Source: a virus
Taxonomy: Duplodnaviria; Caudoviricetes
Virus record (IMG/VR): IMGVR_UViG_2974736276_000001
Span: 64,001-128,000 of that record
Strand: one strand, 5' to 3'
Length of the DNA: 64,000 nt
The notes beneath the pieces were generated by a model. That model saw only the letters and a list, made by a program, of their open reading frames with translations, did not search any database and was not told the origin of the DNA. The position numbers were made by a program, and so were the translations under genes. Positions 1,587-7,282 of the stretch are shown here, piece after piece. Each line of letters begins with the position of its first letter. The stretch's first letter is position 1.

Positions 1587-1714
1587 AAGTGTACCAGAGG
1601 GACTTGAACCCCCAAGATTGCAGCCTCTCGTCGGGTTACCTCTTACTCAGCTGGATGCTTAAACCAGCGTTTCAACAGAGTTCGCCAATGTGTCTACCGG
1701 TTTCACCATGGTAC
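1587..1714 (-). ncRNA. tRNA-like RNA with greatly extended anticodon arm
   Basis: acceptor GTACCA/TGGTAC, Leu-type D arm, T arm GGGGG-TTCAAGT-CCCTC, long insert, no encoded CCA. Confidence 0.65.
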
Positions 1715-1784
1715 GTGTCTGTGACATATCCGGAATGTCGGAATTAACATCTCACTCTCATATAGTCACATCTTTTACAGACTC

Positions 1785-1854
1785 TAGTGGAGATACCCGG
1801 AATTGAACCGAGGTCAGCGAATTTTGCGCCGTAATTGCACTATACTATATCCCC
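1785..1854 (-). ncRNA. miniature tRNA-like RNA with Ala identity G3:U70
   Basis: GGGGATA/TATCTCC-A, T arm CTCGG-TTCAATT-CCGGG, shrunken anticodon arm, ends ACTA. Confidence 0.65.
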
Positions 1855-1859
1855 GAATT

Positions 1860-1934
1860 TGGTGGCCCTGGCAGGAATCGAACCTGCATCAAGCGATTAT
1901 GAGTCGCTAGCTTGAACCGTCCAGCTACAGGGCC
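1860..1934 (-). tRNA. tRNA(CAT), Ile2 (lysidine) or elongator Met
   Basis: GGCCCTG acceptor, AGCGA-CTCATAA-TCGCT, CCA. Confidence 0.9.
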
Positions 1935-1941
1935 TAATCTT

Positions 1942-2024
1942 TAGTGCGTGCTCTATGCCAGGGTTACCCCTCGCTGGGACTCGAACCCATTAAACCGTAT
2001 TTCCTGAAGTCACTTTTCGGGCAC
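1942..2024 (-). ncRNA. circularly permuted tRNA-like RNA (YrlA/Y-RNA-like candidate)
   Basis: internal T arm TGGG-TTCGAGT-CCCA, then GTAA-capped stem, then TAG; GTGC/GCAC ends. Confidence 0.45.
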
Positions 2025-2179
2025 TTAATTGATAACAGTGAGGGGTGATCAGTCCATCCTCGAGTAATGGGTTTCCTTAAAGTACTCCGCCGCTCGGTTA
2101 GTCTCGCACCTAGCTAAGATTGCTCTTAGGAGGCTCAGCTCTCGTCTCGCAGACATACACTGTTATCAATTAAATGCCC
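2019..2179 (-). ncRNA. structured RNA enclosed by a 22-bp inverted repeat
   Basis: GGGCACTTAATTGATAACAGTG ... CACTGTTATCAATTAAATGCCC (1 mismatch). Confidence 0.6.
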
Positions 2180-2237
2180 TCTTTCGAGGGCTTGCCTTTC
2201 GGCTACCTTGTCGGGCGTTTCCACCTGCTAGGCAAGT
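2177..2237 (-). ncRNA. small structured RNA with GNRA hairpins
   Basis: ACTTGC-CTA-GCAGGT, GCC-GAAA-GGC, CCCTC-GAAA-GAGGG. Confidence 0.5.
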
Positions 2238-2291
2238 GTTCTTTTACTTGATGGATTAATAATAACACTAATATTTTATAGCACTTATATG

Positions 2292-2325
2292 AAAAAGCCC
2301 CGTAACAGATTTCTCTGTCCAGGGC
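2292..2325 (-). terminator. intrinsic terminator
   Basis: GCCCTG..CAGAGAAATCTG..CGGGGC-TTTTT. Confidence 0.7.
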
Positions 2326-2330
2326 GTCAT

Positions 2331-2405
2331 TGGAGGCGGGAGAAGGAGTTGCACCTACGACCTCGAGGTTATGAGCCTCGCATTCTACTACTGAACTATC
2401 CCGCT
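2331..2405 (-). tRNA. tRNA-Met(CAT), initiator-like
   Basis: A1xC72 mismatch, CGAGG-CTCATAA-CCTCG, T loop TGCAACT, CCA. Confidence 0.85.
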
Positions 2406-2737
2406 ATTGAAGCATTTAAATTTTTATGAATTAATATTACACTAGATTCACTATATACACAATTCTGTAATGAAGTAATGCGCCAAGAACCAAACGGCAT
2501 TACTCTAAAACCTTCAGGTGTAAAACCTACTAATAGAGCTACTACTAAACTATTACCACGCGAAACACTTACTAAATCACCTGGTGAAACTTCTCTTTTA
2601 ATCTTATCCAAGCGAGATTCATTGGTTAAAGTTGCCAATGATTTTGGAATAACCAGAGCAGCATTTTCTAATACATCTTGAGCTTGTAGACCTTCATACT
2701 TATTGTAGAAATCTTTAGCTGATTTAGTAATTGACAT
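2396..2737 (-). CDS. Trna.2-like hypothetical protein
   Basis: LDKIKREVSPGDLV..LVGFTP motif; start trimmed to MSITK. Confidence 0.65.
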   Translation of the reverse strand: MSITKSAKDFYNKYEGLQAQDVLENAALVIPKSLATLTNESRLDKIKREVSPGDLVSVSRGNSLVVALLVGFTPEGFRVMPFGSWRITSLQNCVYSESSVILIHKNLNASIAG

Positions 2738-2754
2738 TGTATTTCTCTCATAAT

Positions 2755-2839
2755 TGGTACATCTGATGGGACTCGAACCCATAATCCTCTAGGGCGGGAG
2801 ATTTTAAGTCTCCTGTGTATTCCATTCCACCACAGATGC
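2755..2839 (-). tRNA. trnL: tRNA-Leu(TAA)
   Basis: GGAGA-CTTAAAA-TCTCC, long variable arm, CCA. Confidence 0.95.
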
Positions 2840-2846
2840 ATTGAAT

Positions 2847-2921
2847 TGGTGGGGACCACTGGTAACGATCCAGTCTCTCAGGCTTTTCAGGCGAGCGCTA
2901 ATCCATCTCAGCTAGGACCCC
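2847..2921 (-). tRNA. trnF: tRNA-Phe(GAA), atypical
   Basis: loop CTGAAAA; bulged anticodon stem; T loop ATCGTTA; CCA. Confidence 0.75.
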
Positions 2922-2927
2922 GTTAAA

Positions 2928-3173
2928 TTAAACTAAATGAAGCTCATTAGACATCCACAATTGAGCAAAACGTTCTGAAACTAAAGTAATTCTTGAAGGC
3001 GTTTTAACTCGAGTGCTTACATTTTCAATTTCAACACCGTGAGCATTTTTACCTAATACTTTACCAACTGTTACTTCACCCCAGTCACTCATACCTCGAG
3101 CTTTCAGTGGAGTAAGAACATAATCACCAATATAAACCGGTTTGTTGTACTTGTCTTGAATTACTGGTACCAT
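2928..3173 (-). CDS. Trna.2-like hypothetical protein (paralog of 7324..7602)
   Basis: GAGG RBS; DKYNKPVYIGD..VSERFAQLWMSNEL. Confidence 0.75.
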   Translation of the reverse strand: MVPVIQDKYNKPVYIGDYVLTPLKARGMSDWGEVTVGKVLGKNAHGVEIENVSTRVKTPSRITLVSERFAQLWMSNELHLV

Positions 3174-3192
3174 TATATTTTCCTCATTTAAT

Positions 3193-3269
3193 TGGTCTCA
3201 TACGCTATTACAATGCGCTCCGCACGGAAATGAGAAGTCGTAACTGCTCAGCACCTTATTAATATGAGA
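3193..3269 (-). ncRNA. anticodon-less tRNA mimic with encoded CCA
   Basis: TCTCATA/TATGAGA-CCA; central hairpin capped by UACG. Confidence 0.55.
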
Positions 3270-3274
3270 TTTTT

Positions 3275-5928: not shown

Positions 5929-5952
5929 ATTACTATTCTGTACTTGATAGAG

Positions 5953-5981
5953 ATTATAACACACCTACAAGTAATGTACAC
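5953..5981 (-). promoter_or_regulatory. T4-type early promoter
   Basis: GTGTAC...TGTGT-TATAAT. Confidence 0.6.
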
Positions 5982-6003
5982 TATTTTAGTAAAATAACTA
6001 AGC

Positions 6004-6102
6004 ACAGTAAGGAAGGACGCCACTAATACATTCCTTCATATCGTCACGGTCAGCGGCGATTATGTTCACTTGCGATGAACAAATTTTCCGTGGTCTTACT
6101 GT
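6004..6102 (-). ncRNA. multi-helix structured RNA with possible pseudoknots
   Basis: ACAGTAAG/CTTACTGT closing stem, three inner hairpins. Confidence 0.55.
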
Positions 6103-6103
6103 A

Positions 6104-6178
6104 ATCAAGGGCGAGAATCGAACTCGCAACCAGTCAGCCCGAAGCCTCCCACTCTACCTATTTGAGCTGTCACTTGAA
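6104..6178 (-). ncRNA. pseudo-tRNA (intact D and T arms, degenerate anticodon arm)
   Basis: AGCTCAAATAGGTAGAGT and GCGAG-TTCGATT-CTCGC; no CCA. Confidence 0.55.
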
Positions 6179-6180
6179 TT

Positions 6181-6245
6181 TGGCGGGCACTTTCCGCACT
6201 CCATCACGCGTTGGAAGCCAAGGAGTGTTATCGGCTAAGTAACCC
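6181..6245 (-). ncRNA. small CCA-terminated RNA with H-type pseudoknot
   Basis: GGGTTACTT/AAGTGCCC-GCCA enclosing AGCCGA/TTGGCT and CACTCC/GGAGTG. Confidence 0.55.
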
Positions 6246-6251
6246 ATTGTC

Positions 6252-6342
6252 TGGCGGAAGAAGAGAGATTTGAACTCTCAAGGCATTTAAAATACTCAGC
6301 TCGTTTCCAACGAGTTTTCGTCACCAATCGATTTGTTCTTCC
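6252..6342 (-). tRNA. trnS: tRNA-Ser(GGA)
   Basis: CTCG-TTGGAAA-CGAG, long variable arm, GCCA; weak D arm. Confidence 0.85.
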
Positions 6343-6347
6343 AAATT

Positions 6348-6437
6348 TGGAGGAAGCGATGGGATTCGAACCCATGGACCCGTTTTCACGGGCCTCTTCC
6401 TTAGCAGGGAAGTGCAATTCCACTCTGCCACGCTTCC
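6348..6437 (-). tRNA. trnS: tRNA-Ser(GCT)
   Basis: CTTCC-CTGCTAA-GGAAG, long variable arm, CCA. Confidence 0.95.
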
Positions 6438-6441
6438 TAAT

Positions 6442-6517
6442 TGGGGTGACCGACCGGGTACGATCCGGCAACATCCGCAATCACAGTGCGGGGTTCTACC
6501 AATTGAACTACGGCCAC
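6442..6517 (-). tRNA. trnH: tRNA-His(GTG)
   Basis: CCGCA-CTGTGAT-TGCGG, C73-CCA. Confidence 0.92.
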
Positions 6518-6627
6518 ATCAATACTCACTCCACCAATCATGATGGCTTTAGGCAAATATTTCAGAGTAACCCGCGGTGGTTAACTTGTATCAAACCGAA
6601 ATATCGTATCAAGTAAGTATTGATGTG
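6515..6627. repeat. 12-bp inverted repeat enclosing a non-coding segment
   Basis: CACATCAATACT ... AGTATTGATGTG. Confidence 0.6.
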
Positions 6628-6751
6628 ACAATAAGCATCCGTGCTCAATAGCCAAGAGTAAAATCGGGCATCATCCAGAACTTCATGTTCGTCGTGACGG
6701 CTTGTGAAACCTAATCACCAAAGGTGCTCTCACATAGGTTTTGTTCGTATA

Positions 6752-6838
6752 GGTGATTAAAGATGGGGTCGAACCATCAACTCGTACGCTGCTCTTCCTG
6801 GCAGTGTGGTTGCTCCGCATGCACCATATTAAGTACGC
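6752..6838 (-). ncRNA. degenerate tRNA-like element
   Basis: perfect T arm GATGG-TTCGACC-CCATC, remainder non-canonical. Confidence 0.4.
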
Positions 6839-6848
6839 ATTTAATCAT

Positions 6849-6923
6849 TGGCTGGGGTACCTGGATTCGAACCAGAGATGCCGATATCAAAGACCGGTGC
6901 CGTAACCACTTGGCTATACCCCA
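6849..6923 (-). tRNA. trnQ: tRNA-Gln(TTG)
   Basis: TGGGGTA acceptor, CCGGT-CTTTGAT-ATCGG, GCCA. Confidence 0.95.
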
Positions 6924-6952
6924 ATTAAGACCGGATTCACCCGGTCAAGTAA

Positions 6953-7123
6953 TTATACTACAGTTGTTGCCCTACGTCCTGTGAATAGAGATACCAGGAA
7001 GATGATAATACCGACAACGAATACTAACTTAGCTGCCATTGCTGCTGTACCTGCCAATGCACCAAAACCAAGTGCTGCAGCGACCAGAGCGACAATTAGA
7101 AAAATAATACCGTAATGTAACAT
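6953..7123 (-). CDS. ytjA: UPF0391/DUF1328 small membrane protein (YtjA-like), 56 aa, absent from ORF track
   Basis: [58 protein letters not shown]. Confidence 0.9.
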
Positions 7124-7139
7124 ACTTACCTCACTTATT

Positions 7140-7282
7140 TAGTCCGGACGAGTGGAATCGAACCACCCTATCAACAAGTTAGCGCTTCCTGATATTTTAA
7201 GAAACCCAAGATACTAATCTGTCTTTGGAGAGATCGCTAAATCTCTTAGTCCATCGCGAGGTTTTCTCTTTGTTTCGACCAG
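7140..7282 (-). ncRNA. T4 band C (rnaC/species 1)-like tRNA-like stable RNA
   Basis: about 143 nt; CTGGTCG/CGTCCGG acceptor-like stem, 3' T arm GGTGG-TTCGATT-CCACT; AAAATAT..AGCG..AACT resembles recalled T4 rnaC. Confidence 0.65.

Follow-up and report, generated by a model that had tools for sequence, protein, structure and literature searches.

Structured, non-decoding RNA genes between the tRNA genes of a T4-type phage

The tRNA cluster described here lies at positions 1587-7282 of a 64,000-nt window (bases 64001-128000 of the 175,774-base virus record IMGVR_UViG_2974736276_000001). The gaps between its tRNA genes probably hold selected, non-decoding RNA genes which are cotranscribed with the tRNAs and combine a tRNA-half chassis with a functional payload. 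Four units in the gaps, named C1, C2, G2 and B3, are strongly supported by comparison with other phages. By megablast, the closest relative of 1500-7400 is Erwinia phage IT22 (Straboviridae, Tevenvirinae, Roskildevirus; 83% query cover, 92.9% identity) and Erwinia phage FBB1 is a relative further off, which identifies the window as part of a T4-type, Roskildevirus-like phage. In 1-12000 ARAGORN predicted 20 tRNA genes, of which 17 fall within 1587-7282; all are on the minus strand. Rfam also found 20 tRNAs in 1-12000, including a degenerate Phe-like gene at 2850-2921 and omitting tRNA-Ser(GGA). The union of both sets gives 21 tRNAs, all on the minus strand, the same number as counted in the initial annotation. 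Another tRNA, Gly(UCC), sits just beyond the window edge.

The T-loop motif GTTCRANNC was searched across the window and gave 40 matches (15.8 expected). The minus strand of 1-7300 carries 24 of them, 18 in tRNAs and six in gaps (1601, 1800, 1978, 6115, 6766 and 7155). The gaps amount to 1,624 bases; with the background density of the remaining window (16 matches in ~113,400 strand-bases) about 0.23 gap matches are expected (Poisson P ~2e-7). Each of the six gap T-loops has a 5-bp T stem, and the next 5-7 nt can pair with bases located 70-140 nt upstream. Two further gap units are hairpins that end in CCA (6181-6245 with GCCA, 3193-3269 with CCA). The T-loop excess and the matching acceptor-like stems indicate that the gap features are real and above chance. 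The tRNA-like parts which the initial annotation had seen in the gaps were thus recovered, as six units with a T loop and an acceptor-like stem plus the two CCA-ended hairpins. The gap units are located on the tRNA strand and are separated by A/T-rich spacers of 3-6 nt, as between tRNAs.

For detailed analysis the gaps were divided into 16 pieces (A, B1-B3, C1-C3, D1-D2, E, F1-F3, G1, G2 and the 1715-1784 spacer). Folding energies were compared with 200 shuffles per piece; a z-score below -3 was found for only two pieces, B3 (z -3.77; 0/200 shuffles) and F1 (z -4.02), and z was positive in four. Folding energy is blind for tRNA-like units, since C2 (z +1.20) and G2 (z -0.36) look ordinary despite strong covariation. 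An unremarkable folding energy is usual for tRNA-like RNAs. Because folding energy fails to separate most pieces from shuffles, the test must be comparative. By comparison, four pieces have strong support (C1, C2, G2 and B3), four have partial support (B1, F2, G1 and F1) and eight have none. The observation of structured units in the gaps was therefore largely right, and the count of about 14 structured RNAs is overstated and unproven. Nor are the gaps filled throughout by folded units as had been proposed: 2241-2330, the 3' part of 5047-5179 and 5883-6003 hold other elements. The four strongly supported units are as follows.

C1, 6181-6245, minus strand: 65-nt hairpin ending in GCCA, with helices of 4+4+3+6 bp and a 19-nt apical loop.
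C2, 6101-6177, minus strand: tRNA-shaped RNA with acceptor stem, invariant D arm AGCUCAAAUAGGUAGAGC, T arm, and a stub helix for the anticodon arm.
G2, 1590-1714, minus strand: 125-nt leucine-tRNA-derived RNA with acceptor stem, hairpin variable arm and T arm.
B3, 6518-6627, minus strand: Y-shaped RNA of ~107-113 nt, with a 14-17 bp A/U-rich closing stem, a long hairpin and a short hairpin.

Covariance models R1, R2 and R3 were built here for C1, C2 and G2, respectively. The window copies score 91.4 (R1), 98.2 (R2) and 150.7 bits (R3), values that are high by construction as these copies are in the training alignments. Members of the three families score 80-162 bits and tRNAs no more than 43 bits, as expected of discrete families.

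The C1 helices carry one bulged base and small internal loops. A sensitive blastn search found C1 in 30 phage records, among them Straboviridae (Roskildevirus and Winklervirus), Vequintavirinae (Hena1, Ro1 and FENT2), Stephanstirmvirinae (FBKp34) and jumbo phages (Yen9-04, Muenster, RCIP0023, phiKp_21, Hallingskeid and Kaldavass). The copies always lie among or near tRNA genes and are either unannotated or overlapped by a short coding sequence (CDS) call. In an alignment of 15 copies, 95.2% of the 313 cells in the four-helix hairpin are paired and 11 of the 21 pairs have changed on both sides. None of 500 shuffles was as good, and slid alignments paired only 40-59%. The inner loop helix shows no covariation in these copies. 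The apical loop core UCCA(A/C)CG is unchanged in all 15, and each copy has AU directly before G+1 and ends in GCCA at the 3' side. R1 scores its members at 80-94 bits and gave no other match to E=1. We conclude from the covariation that C1 is a real RNA gene selected for structure.

An ATG precedes all 15 C1 copies, and the conserved stretch could be read as a micro-gene of 24-30 codons (M-G-Y-L-A-D-N-T-P-W-L-P-T-R...) and not as an RNA gene. A similar peptide of 24-30 amino acids (aa) is predicted from eight of the 15 copies, and several differences between copies are synonymous or conservative at the peptide level. However, the frame stops early in three copies (after 5, 6 and 9 codons), in four others it is either shifted or runs on into unrelated tails, and copies with a broken frame still keep the RNA pairs. 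The ATG has no Shine-Dalgarno sequence, the bases upstream being a tRNA 3' end, and conservation ends exactly at GCCA and not at a stop codon. The coding reading is very improbable and was rejected on the truncated or shifted frames, the lack of a ribosome-binding site and the retained pairing.

Nine nucleotides of the C1 apical loop, UGGCUUCCA, recur in the anticodon arm (CUGG-CUUCCAC-CCAG) of tRNA-Gly(UCC) in this phage and seven relatives; T4 and TG1 differ. This likeness was noticed post hoc and has a chance probability of ~0.04 after allowing for 21 tRNAs. IMG/VR was scanned with a C1-loop 15-mer, and among the best 80 of 97 stretches only a CHI14 copy was real (blastn, 115 loci), the others matching by chance. 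A gapped C1 pattern gave at least 120 matches in bacterial and archaeal genomes; 80 of these were searched with R1 and none contained C1 (best 17.7 bits). These 80 are chance matches in GC-rich genomes, and the absence of C1 from cells is not thereby proven. No convincing antisense site for the C1 loop was found in the window or the phage genome, where its complement with up to three mismatches gave five matches (including its own locus) vs 2.2 expected. Pairing of the loop with the anticodon arm of the adjacent tRNA-Ser(GGA) (6302-6315) was also considered and rejected, being weak (three mismatches) and lost where the C1 neighbours differ.

C2 has the overall shape of a tRNA, with a stub in place of the decoding arm. 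The stub consists of a short helix containing two tandem G-A/A-G positions, a 5-6 nt loop and the conserved sequence GCUGAYUGG; one stub pair covaries (G-C to U-A). No CCA is encoded. We found C2 in 79 phage records from Straboviridae, Schitoviridae and jumbo phages, for example the Gamaleyavirus podophages ECBP1 and JZBo1, RaK2-like jumbo phages, Tegunavirus TG1 and Jiaodavirus KpV477. It is labelled inconsistently in these records (tRNA-Pseudo, Thr, Cys or Gln; tRNA-Pseudo-ACA in ECBP1 and tRNA-Gln in KpV477). In seven aligned copies, 99.2% of 128 cells are paired and 8 of the 19 pairs have changed on both sides. R2 scores members at 96-103 bits vs 35.6 bits or less for true tRNAs. The D arm (with GG) and the T loop are canonical, so that a tRNA elbow should form. 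As judged from this pairing pattern, C2 is a real RNA gene selected for structure. In the podophage JZBo1, C2 is located in a 1.5-kb unannotated stretch (860-2400 of the locus) together with weak tRNA-like matches to R2 (881-962 and 1061-1140 of the locus).

G2 keeps a Leu-type D arm (GUGAAAYCGGUAGACAC) and lacks CCA. Its anticodon arm is replaced by a branched arm of ~50 nt, in which two stacked helices with conserved internal loops carry an apical hairpin. G2 is present in 13 records of Roskilde-, Winkler- and Kagamiyamavirus, and a scan of IMG/VR with a G2 pattern recovered CHI14- and EcS1-like records only. Over eight copies, 97.6% of 248 cells are paired, 14 of the 31 pairs have changed on both sides and 0/500 shuffles did as well. 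R3 also detected an unannotated G2 in KpV477 (81.8 bits), an independent member for this model, in which every helix is rewritten yet kept, including two that had been invariant. The next-best R3 matches are tRNA-Leu genes at 31-43 bits; because of these runners-up and the Leu-type parts kept, G2 is regarded as a leucine-tRNA derivative. The rewritten helices argue that G2 is a real RNA gene selected for structure.

The 3' limit of B3 is the 5' nucleotide of tRNA-His, and the window copy has a stem that runs 3 bp into this tRNA. A Y-shaped RNA of 95-113 nt occupies the tRNA-Gln/tRNA-His gap in eight of nine relatives examined, FBB1 having a short hairpin only. This architecture encloses three unrelated interiors. 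In the closing stem all 14/14 pairs form in 8/8 sequences, with two pairs changed on both sides and five on one side, and the long inner hairpin shows several compensatory changes between the window and LC53. It was concluded on these grounds that B3 is a real, selected RNA gene. Among cultured relatives, IT22 carries every unit, CHI14 and X20 carry C1, G2 and B3, EcS1 carries G2 and B3, and KpV477 carries C2 and G2.

None of the gap units was called as a canonical tRNA by ARAGORN at default settings or reached E<=1 with RF00005; only G1 receives an ARAGORN call, at relaxed threshold and with an implausible anticodon. An acceptor stem and a T arm with UUCRANY loop are found in A, B1, C2, F3, G1 and G2, and covariation in both acceptor and T stems in C2 and G2. 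A 5-bp anticodon stem with a 7-nt loop and U33 is absent in C2, G2 and G1, and C1 and E are without a cloverleaf. Rfam 15 has no family for any gap unit. ARAGORN predicted no transfer-messenger RNA (tmRNA), and the match of G1 to the Rfam tmRNA family RF00023 is sub-threshold (28 bits vs a cut-off of 47, over 70 nt of a 374-position model). A group I intron was sought in 1-12000 with no Intron_gpI match at E<=1, and the G2 insert of ~50 nt is far too short to be one.

The other pieces with a predicted structure, and one transcription element, are listed below.

B1, 6752-6846, minus strand: tRNA-like unit with a perfect 7-bp acceptor stem (GATTAAA/TTTAATC), T arm GATGG-TTCGACC-CCATC and tail A-CC-U.
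F2, 2027-2175, minus strand: ~110-nt interior enclosed by a 16-17 bp closing stem, UUUAAUUGAUAACAGUG / CACUGUUAUCAAUUAA; z -1.89.
G1, 1785-1854, minus strand: 70-nt reduced tRNA-like RNA with acceptor stem GGGGAUA/UAUCUCC, 3-bp D stem and T arm.
F1, 2176-2240, minus strand: terminator-like three-hairpin module ending in GCCCUC-GAAA-GAGGGC.
A, 7143-7282, minus strand: candidate tRNA-like RNA of ~140 nt with a 7-position acceptor-like stem (CTGGTCG/CGTCCGG) and a long insert.
B2, 6628-6751, minus strand: one hairpin with 21 invariant nt at its top, GACGAACATGAAGTTCTGGA, and another of GAGCA-CGGA-TGCTT.
C3, 6004-6100, minus strand: two hairpins downstream of C2; candidate only.
D1, 5180-5320, minus strand: structured stretch after tRNA-Asp, not in FBB1; z -0.68.
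D2, 5047-5179, minus strand: conserved stretch running into the Shine-Dalgarno site of the open reading frame (ORF) 4736-5005.
E, 3193-3269, minus strand: 77-nt hairpin with a 7-bp terminal stem (UCUCAUA/UAUGAGA) and CCA directly after it; no T loop.
F3, 1942-2026, minus strand: candidate tRNA-like unit with T arm UGGG-UUCGAGU-CCCA (T-loop match 1978) and a possible acceptor stem, CCCCUC/GAGGGG.
Terminator hairpin and promoter-like AT-rich stretch, in this order after tRNA-Met, 2241-2330, minus strand: assigned from sequence and fold.

Support for G1 is partial. An 80% identical copy was found in Pantoea phage Phynn, with T-stem changes on both sides and an ACCA end. The 5-bp stem of G1 has the loop CAAAAUU, with A at position 33 and no U33. 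In Phynn the homologue (3501-3575 of the locus) is labelled tRNA-Ser and lies by itself, with structural/replication genes on one side and a helicase gene on the other. B1 is likewise partly supported, from three sequences (window, IT22 and FBB1): the consensus fold by alifold has 27 pairs, with one acceptor pair changed from A-U to G-C. Its central arm (CGTAC/GTACG) bears two hairpins, and B1 is more conserved than its flanks (z +0.12). The F2 closing stem, also with partial support, shows one change on both sides in FBB1 (G-C to A-U) and a G-U pair in IT22; in FBB1, F2 adjoins tRNA-Met directly. In appearance, B3 and F2 are closer to leader or spacer RNAs than to mimics of tRNA. The fourth partly supported piece, F1, is homologous to T4 70853-70905, directly 3' of rnaC, the trailer/terminator of the T4 tRNA operon; it matches 787 T-even-type records and is missing in FBB1.

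For B2 the support appears weak, with three pairs changed on both sides against FBB1 and z +0.61. A 45-codon minus-strand ORF over B1/B2 meets a stop after four codons in FBB1. A, C3, D1, E and F3 are known only as near-identical copies in IT22. The A acceptor-like stem includes one U-U mismatch and one G-U pair, the T arm is GGTGG-TTCGATT-CCACT (T-loop match 7155) and the tail is A-CUA, without CCA; the sole copy in the phage collection, that of IT22, is 100% identical and gives A no comparative support (z -0.65). E is also carried by IT22 only, at 100% identity (z -1.50), and is a candidate only. C3 (z -1.82, 8/200 shuffles) was found only in IT22, as was F3 (z -0.94), which is missing in FBB1. 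A ~34-nt hairpin within D1 (~5190-5223) recurs in three unrelated phages. D2 is 86% identical to FBB1 (z +1.26) and is probably an mRNA leader.

Contigs from four metagenome runs (X1, X2 and X3 among them) were compared across the region. A close relative in run X3 lacks exactly 1785-1859 (G1), 6177-6343 (C1 and tRNA-Ser GGA) and 3355-3450 (tRNA-Ser UGA); in X3 and X2 relatives a joint 3191/3274 runs across E; and in an X1 relative 6935-7285 (an ORF and A) is replaced by 225 other bases. Since the indels in relatives fall at unit borders, the units are gained and lost like the surrounding tRNA genes. Each behaves as a cassette of its own, which phage families can acquire, lose or exchange.

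From the anatomy, conservation, covariation and cassette indels observed above, we infer how the units may be transcribed, processed, stabilised and act in trans. The gap RNAs would be transcribed together with the tRNAs, RNase P would cut their 5' ends and 3' trimming enzymes would finish the 3' ends. The released units would then persist as stable RNAs, like RNA C and RNA D of T4. Release by tRNA maturation is suggested by the position on the tRNA strand, the tRNA-like spacing, the acceptor/T-arm or NCCA ends and the U(-1)/G(+1) of C1. A U(-1)/G(+1)/RCCA signature as in C1 is preferred by bacterial RNase P. The half of a tRNA that most units retain is also the one on which RNase P, the 3' trimming enzymes and the CCA-adding enzyme act. 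The kept tRNA half (acceptor and T arm, with an elbow in C2 and G2; an NCCA minihelix in C1 and E) would serve as a chassis for processing and stability, and the family-specific payload helix replacing the decoding arm would be the functional part. B3 and F2 would represent a second kind, closed Y-shaped spacer/leader RNAs which are released or act 5' of tRNA-His and tRNA-Met, possibly in cis on the maturation of these two tRNAs. In this sense the launch of structured RNAs from the tRNA operon, as first proposed, is plausible.

As the payload partner, our best guess would be a tRNA-handling factor of the host or the phage. PHROG and Pfam matches of the context ORFs indicate no partner protein. 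No payload matches a known nuclease target, the sole hint being the 9 nt shared by the C1 loop and tRNA-Gly(UCC). An arsenal of decoys or effectors against PrrC, PARIS or CapRel, as put forward in the initial annotation, finds no support in these results and stands as a hypothesis. A broader version, tentative and rather doubtful, is that large enterobacterial phages share a horizontally exchanged library of payload RNAs, carried on the tRNA half used for processing, whose mimics of tRNA parts titrate or redirect tRNA-directed immunity of the host or tRNA-modifying factors; examples would be the C1 loop UGGCUUCCA on a GCCA minihelix and the Leu body of G2 with its rebuilt anticodon arm. If true, a phage tRNA cluster would be a counter-defence RNA locus as much as a translation aid.

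Several points weigh against the interpretation of the gaps as a set of selected RNA genes. Encoded CCA is lacking in most units. The G1 tail is ACUA in the window vs ACCA in IT22 and Phynn, and the window copy may be decaying. A, B2, C3, D1, D2, E, F3 and the 1715-1784 spacer are without informative relatives and have ordinary folding energies; they may be junk or mRNA leaders. The shuffle control is tree-blind and may overstate significance among related sequences, for which the slid controls are the better guard. No unit showed homology to T4 rnaC or rnaD when all gaps were searched against the T4 locus by sensitive blastn, the only match being that of F1 to the trailer.

Three other explanations of the gap units were weighed. 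The units may be punctuation acting in cis, that is, handles or spacers for processing of the polycistronic precursor with no function once released. This is possible, though on the unlikely side. B3 always adjoins tRNA-His and in the window pairs with its first 3 nt, F2 adjoins tRNA-Met in FBB1, several units adjoin small ORFs, and the B3 shape is kept over three unrelated interiors, as expected if only shape matters. A mere handle, however, needs no conserved loop, and across phage families conservation in these RNAs is highest in the apical loop of C1 and the payload loops of C2 and G2; moreover, C1 and C2 move between phages without a fixed tRNA neighbour and G1 of Phynn lies outside a tRNA cluster. 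A less probable explanation is that most units are dying tRNA duplicates or recombination scars, with one or two real genes among them. It would fit the degenerate Phe-like tRNA at 2850-2921, the lack of CCA in the window G1, the mostly ordinary z-scores, the HNH homing endonuclease gene within the cluster, the lineage-restricted A, E, F3, C3 and D1 and the free deletion of units in relatives. In a decaying copy, 95-99% of the pairs would not survive the rewriting of the stems, and decay is thus refuted for C1, C2, G2 and B3 by their compensatory changes and cross-family conservation. Simple decay of tRNA pseudogenes had been named beforehand as the outcome that would overturn the proposal, and these four units speak against it.

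The remaining alternative, which we find hardly credible, places selection on the DNA: recombination or homing endonucleases would have their sites at the cassette borders and in the long inverted repeats of B3 and F2. Indels do fall exactly at unit borders, and HNH/homing endonuclease genes are found inside the cluster and near C1 in Muenster and Yen9-04. On the other hand, the internal hairpins of B3 differ between the window and LC53 by compensatory changes, the stems admit G-U pairs, which fits RNA and not DNA, and all elements are on the same strand as the tRNAs. We favor selected RNA genes, probably released by tRNA maturation; selection is firmest for the four units with strong comparative support.

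To our knowledge, RNA C and RNA D of T4 have been known for about 50 years without a function and are usually regarded as a T4 oddity. In the T4 tRNA cluster both carry the annotation small stable RNA (rnaC, species 1, 139 nt; rnaD, species 2, 119 nt), and as far as the relevant passages of two papers go their function is unknown (PMC3014915; PMC12685909). In rnaC, a canonical T arm (CCGGG-UUCGAAU-CCCGG) precedes 7 nt that form an imperfect acceptor-like stem with the 5' end; the RNA also has a long insert, and CCA is missing. A, B1 and G2 follow the same plan, with an insert in place of the D and anticodon arms, and the gap units resemble RNA C and D in lying within a T4-type tRNA cluster, on the tRNA strand, without decoding. 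The comparison with RNA C and D drawn at the outset is thus apt in architecture (T arm, acceptor-like stem, insert and no CCA in rnaC). R1-R3 gave no significant match on rnaC or rnaD. T4 has two such RNAs at the cluster end, whereas this phage has four well-supported ones and as many as 16 pieces, spread along the cluster. A T arm, present in rnaC, is absent altogether from C1, E, B3 and F2.

The original tRNA-scaffold method of RNA engineering was reportedly described in a 2007 paper. In the engineered scaffold, according to the portions consulted of two articles, a foreign RNA replaces the anticodon arm and the chimera is processed and stabilised as a tRNA in E. coli (PMC3753655; PMC3401473). 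G2, A and B1 share this layout; the scaffold is man-made, whereas the gap RNAs are natural, diversified and appear to be under selection, with conserved RNAs as payloads. In FBKp34, an annotated tRNA-Asp of 114 nt (locus 1862-1975) has an insert of ~37 nt between the D and anticodon arms, and in Hena1 an annotated 'suppressor' tRNA of 108 nt (locus 1995-2102) has a long insert. These over-long tRNAs may be further payload-bearing tRNA-like RNAs.

Among other tRNA-like substrates of RNase P, an acceptor/T-arm/elbow module serves processing or the recruitment of proteins, without decoding, in mascRNA, plant-virus tRNA-like structures, the tRNA-like domain of tmRNA and the bacterial Y-RNA-like YrlA. 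These RNAs have no sequence or context in common with the gap units; the Rfam matches to YrlA (25 bits, cut-off 69) and mascRNA (23.6 bits, cut-off 42.5) are sub-threshold and fall on true tRNAs. Fremin et al. (2023; PMC10690425) reported ~10,000 viral structured-RNA candidates, including predicted tRNA or tRNA-like structures. The main text of that paper has five candidates overlapping ARAGORN tRNAs and no family like C1, C2, G2 or B3; its supplementary tables could list overlaps. Our literature search, which covered main texts, likewise found no description of the four families.

With these units the design principle of RNA C and D appears to be used many times in one phage. C1, C2 and G2 are discrete, uncatalogued families with strong covariation, and C1 and C2 are common to unrelated phage families. 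Their RNAs are short, defined and conserved, which makes the old question of function testable. They also matter for annotation, where C2 copies are mislabelled as tRNA-Cys, Thr, Gln or pseudo and C1 copies are placed under spurious CDS calls, and they would be natural instances of the tRNA-scaffold idea.

Small ORFs break up the tRNA cluster. By PHROG and Pfam matches they include a gp30.3-like gene, a DUF7768 gene (nucleoside 2-deoxyribosyltransferase-like), an HNH endonuclease gene and unknowns. The HNH homing endonuclease gene (3544-3987, minus strand) encodes an N-terminal helix-turn-helix domain and is located between tRNA-Tyr and tRNA-Leu; the X3 relative has 270 different bases in place of 3544-4076. 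A hydrophobic small protein of 56 aa (phrog_16461) is encoded at 6953-7123 (minus strand) between unit A and tRNA-Gln, and its gene and unit A are swapped out together in the X1 relative. The degenerate tRNA-Phe-like gene at 2850-2921 (minus strand; Rfam 36.8 bits, no ARAGORN call) has a spoiled T loop (GGAUCGUUACC); IT22 and FBB1 have an annotated tRNA-Phe at the matching place.

The terminator and promoter-like stretch at 2241-2330, an arrangement also present in FBB1, would split the cluster into at least two transcription units. Another promoter-like site is located within 5883-6003. In a fold of the whole gap, the 3' half of the F1 hairpin (GAGGGC) and the 5' strand of F2 alternatively pair with AAGUGCCC at the start of F3 (2176-2240 and 1994-2044, minus strand), a possible terminator/antiterminator limited to the window and IT22. 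The 66-nt spacer between tRNA-Ile and tRNA-Lys (4592-4657, minus strand) is 65/65 identical to FBB1, the other gaps being 74-90% identical, which suggests either strong constraint or a recent exchange.

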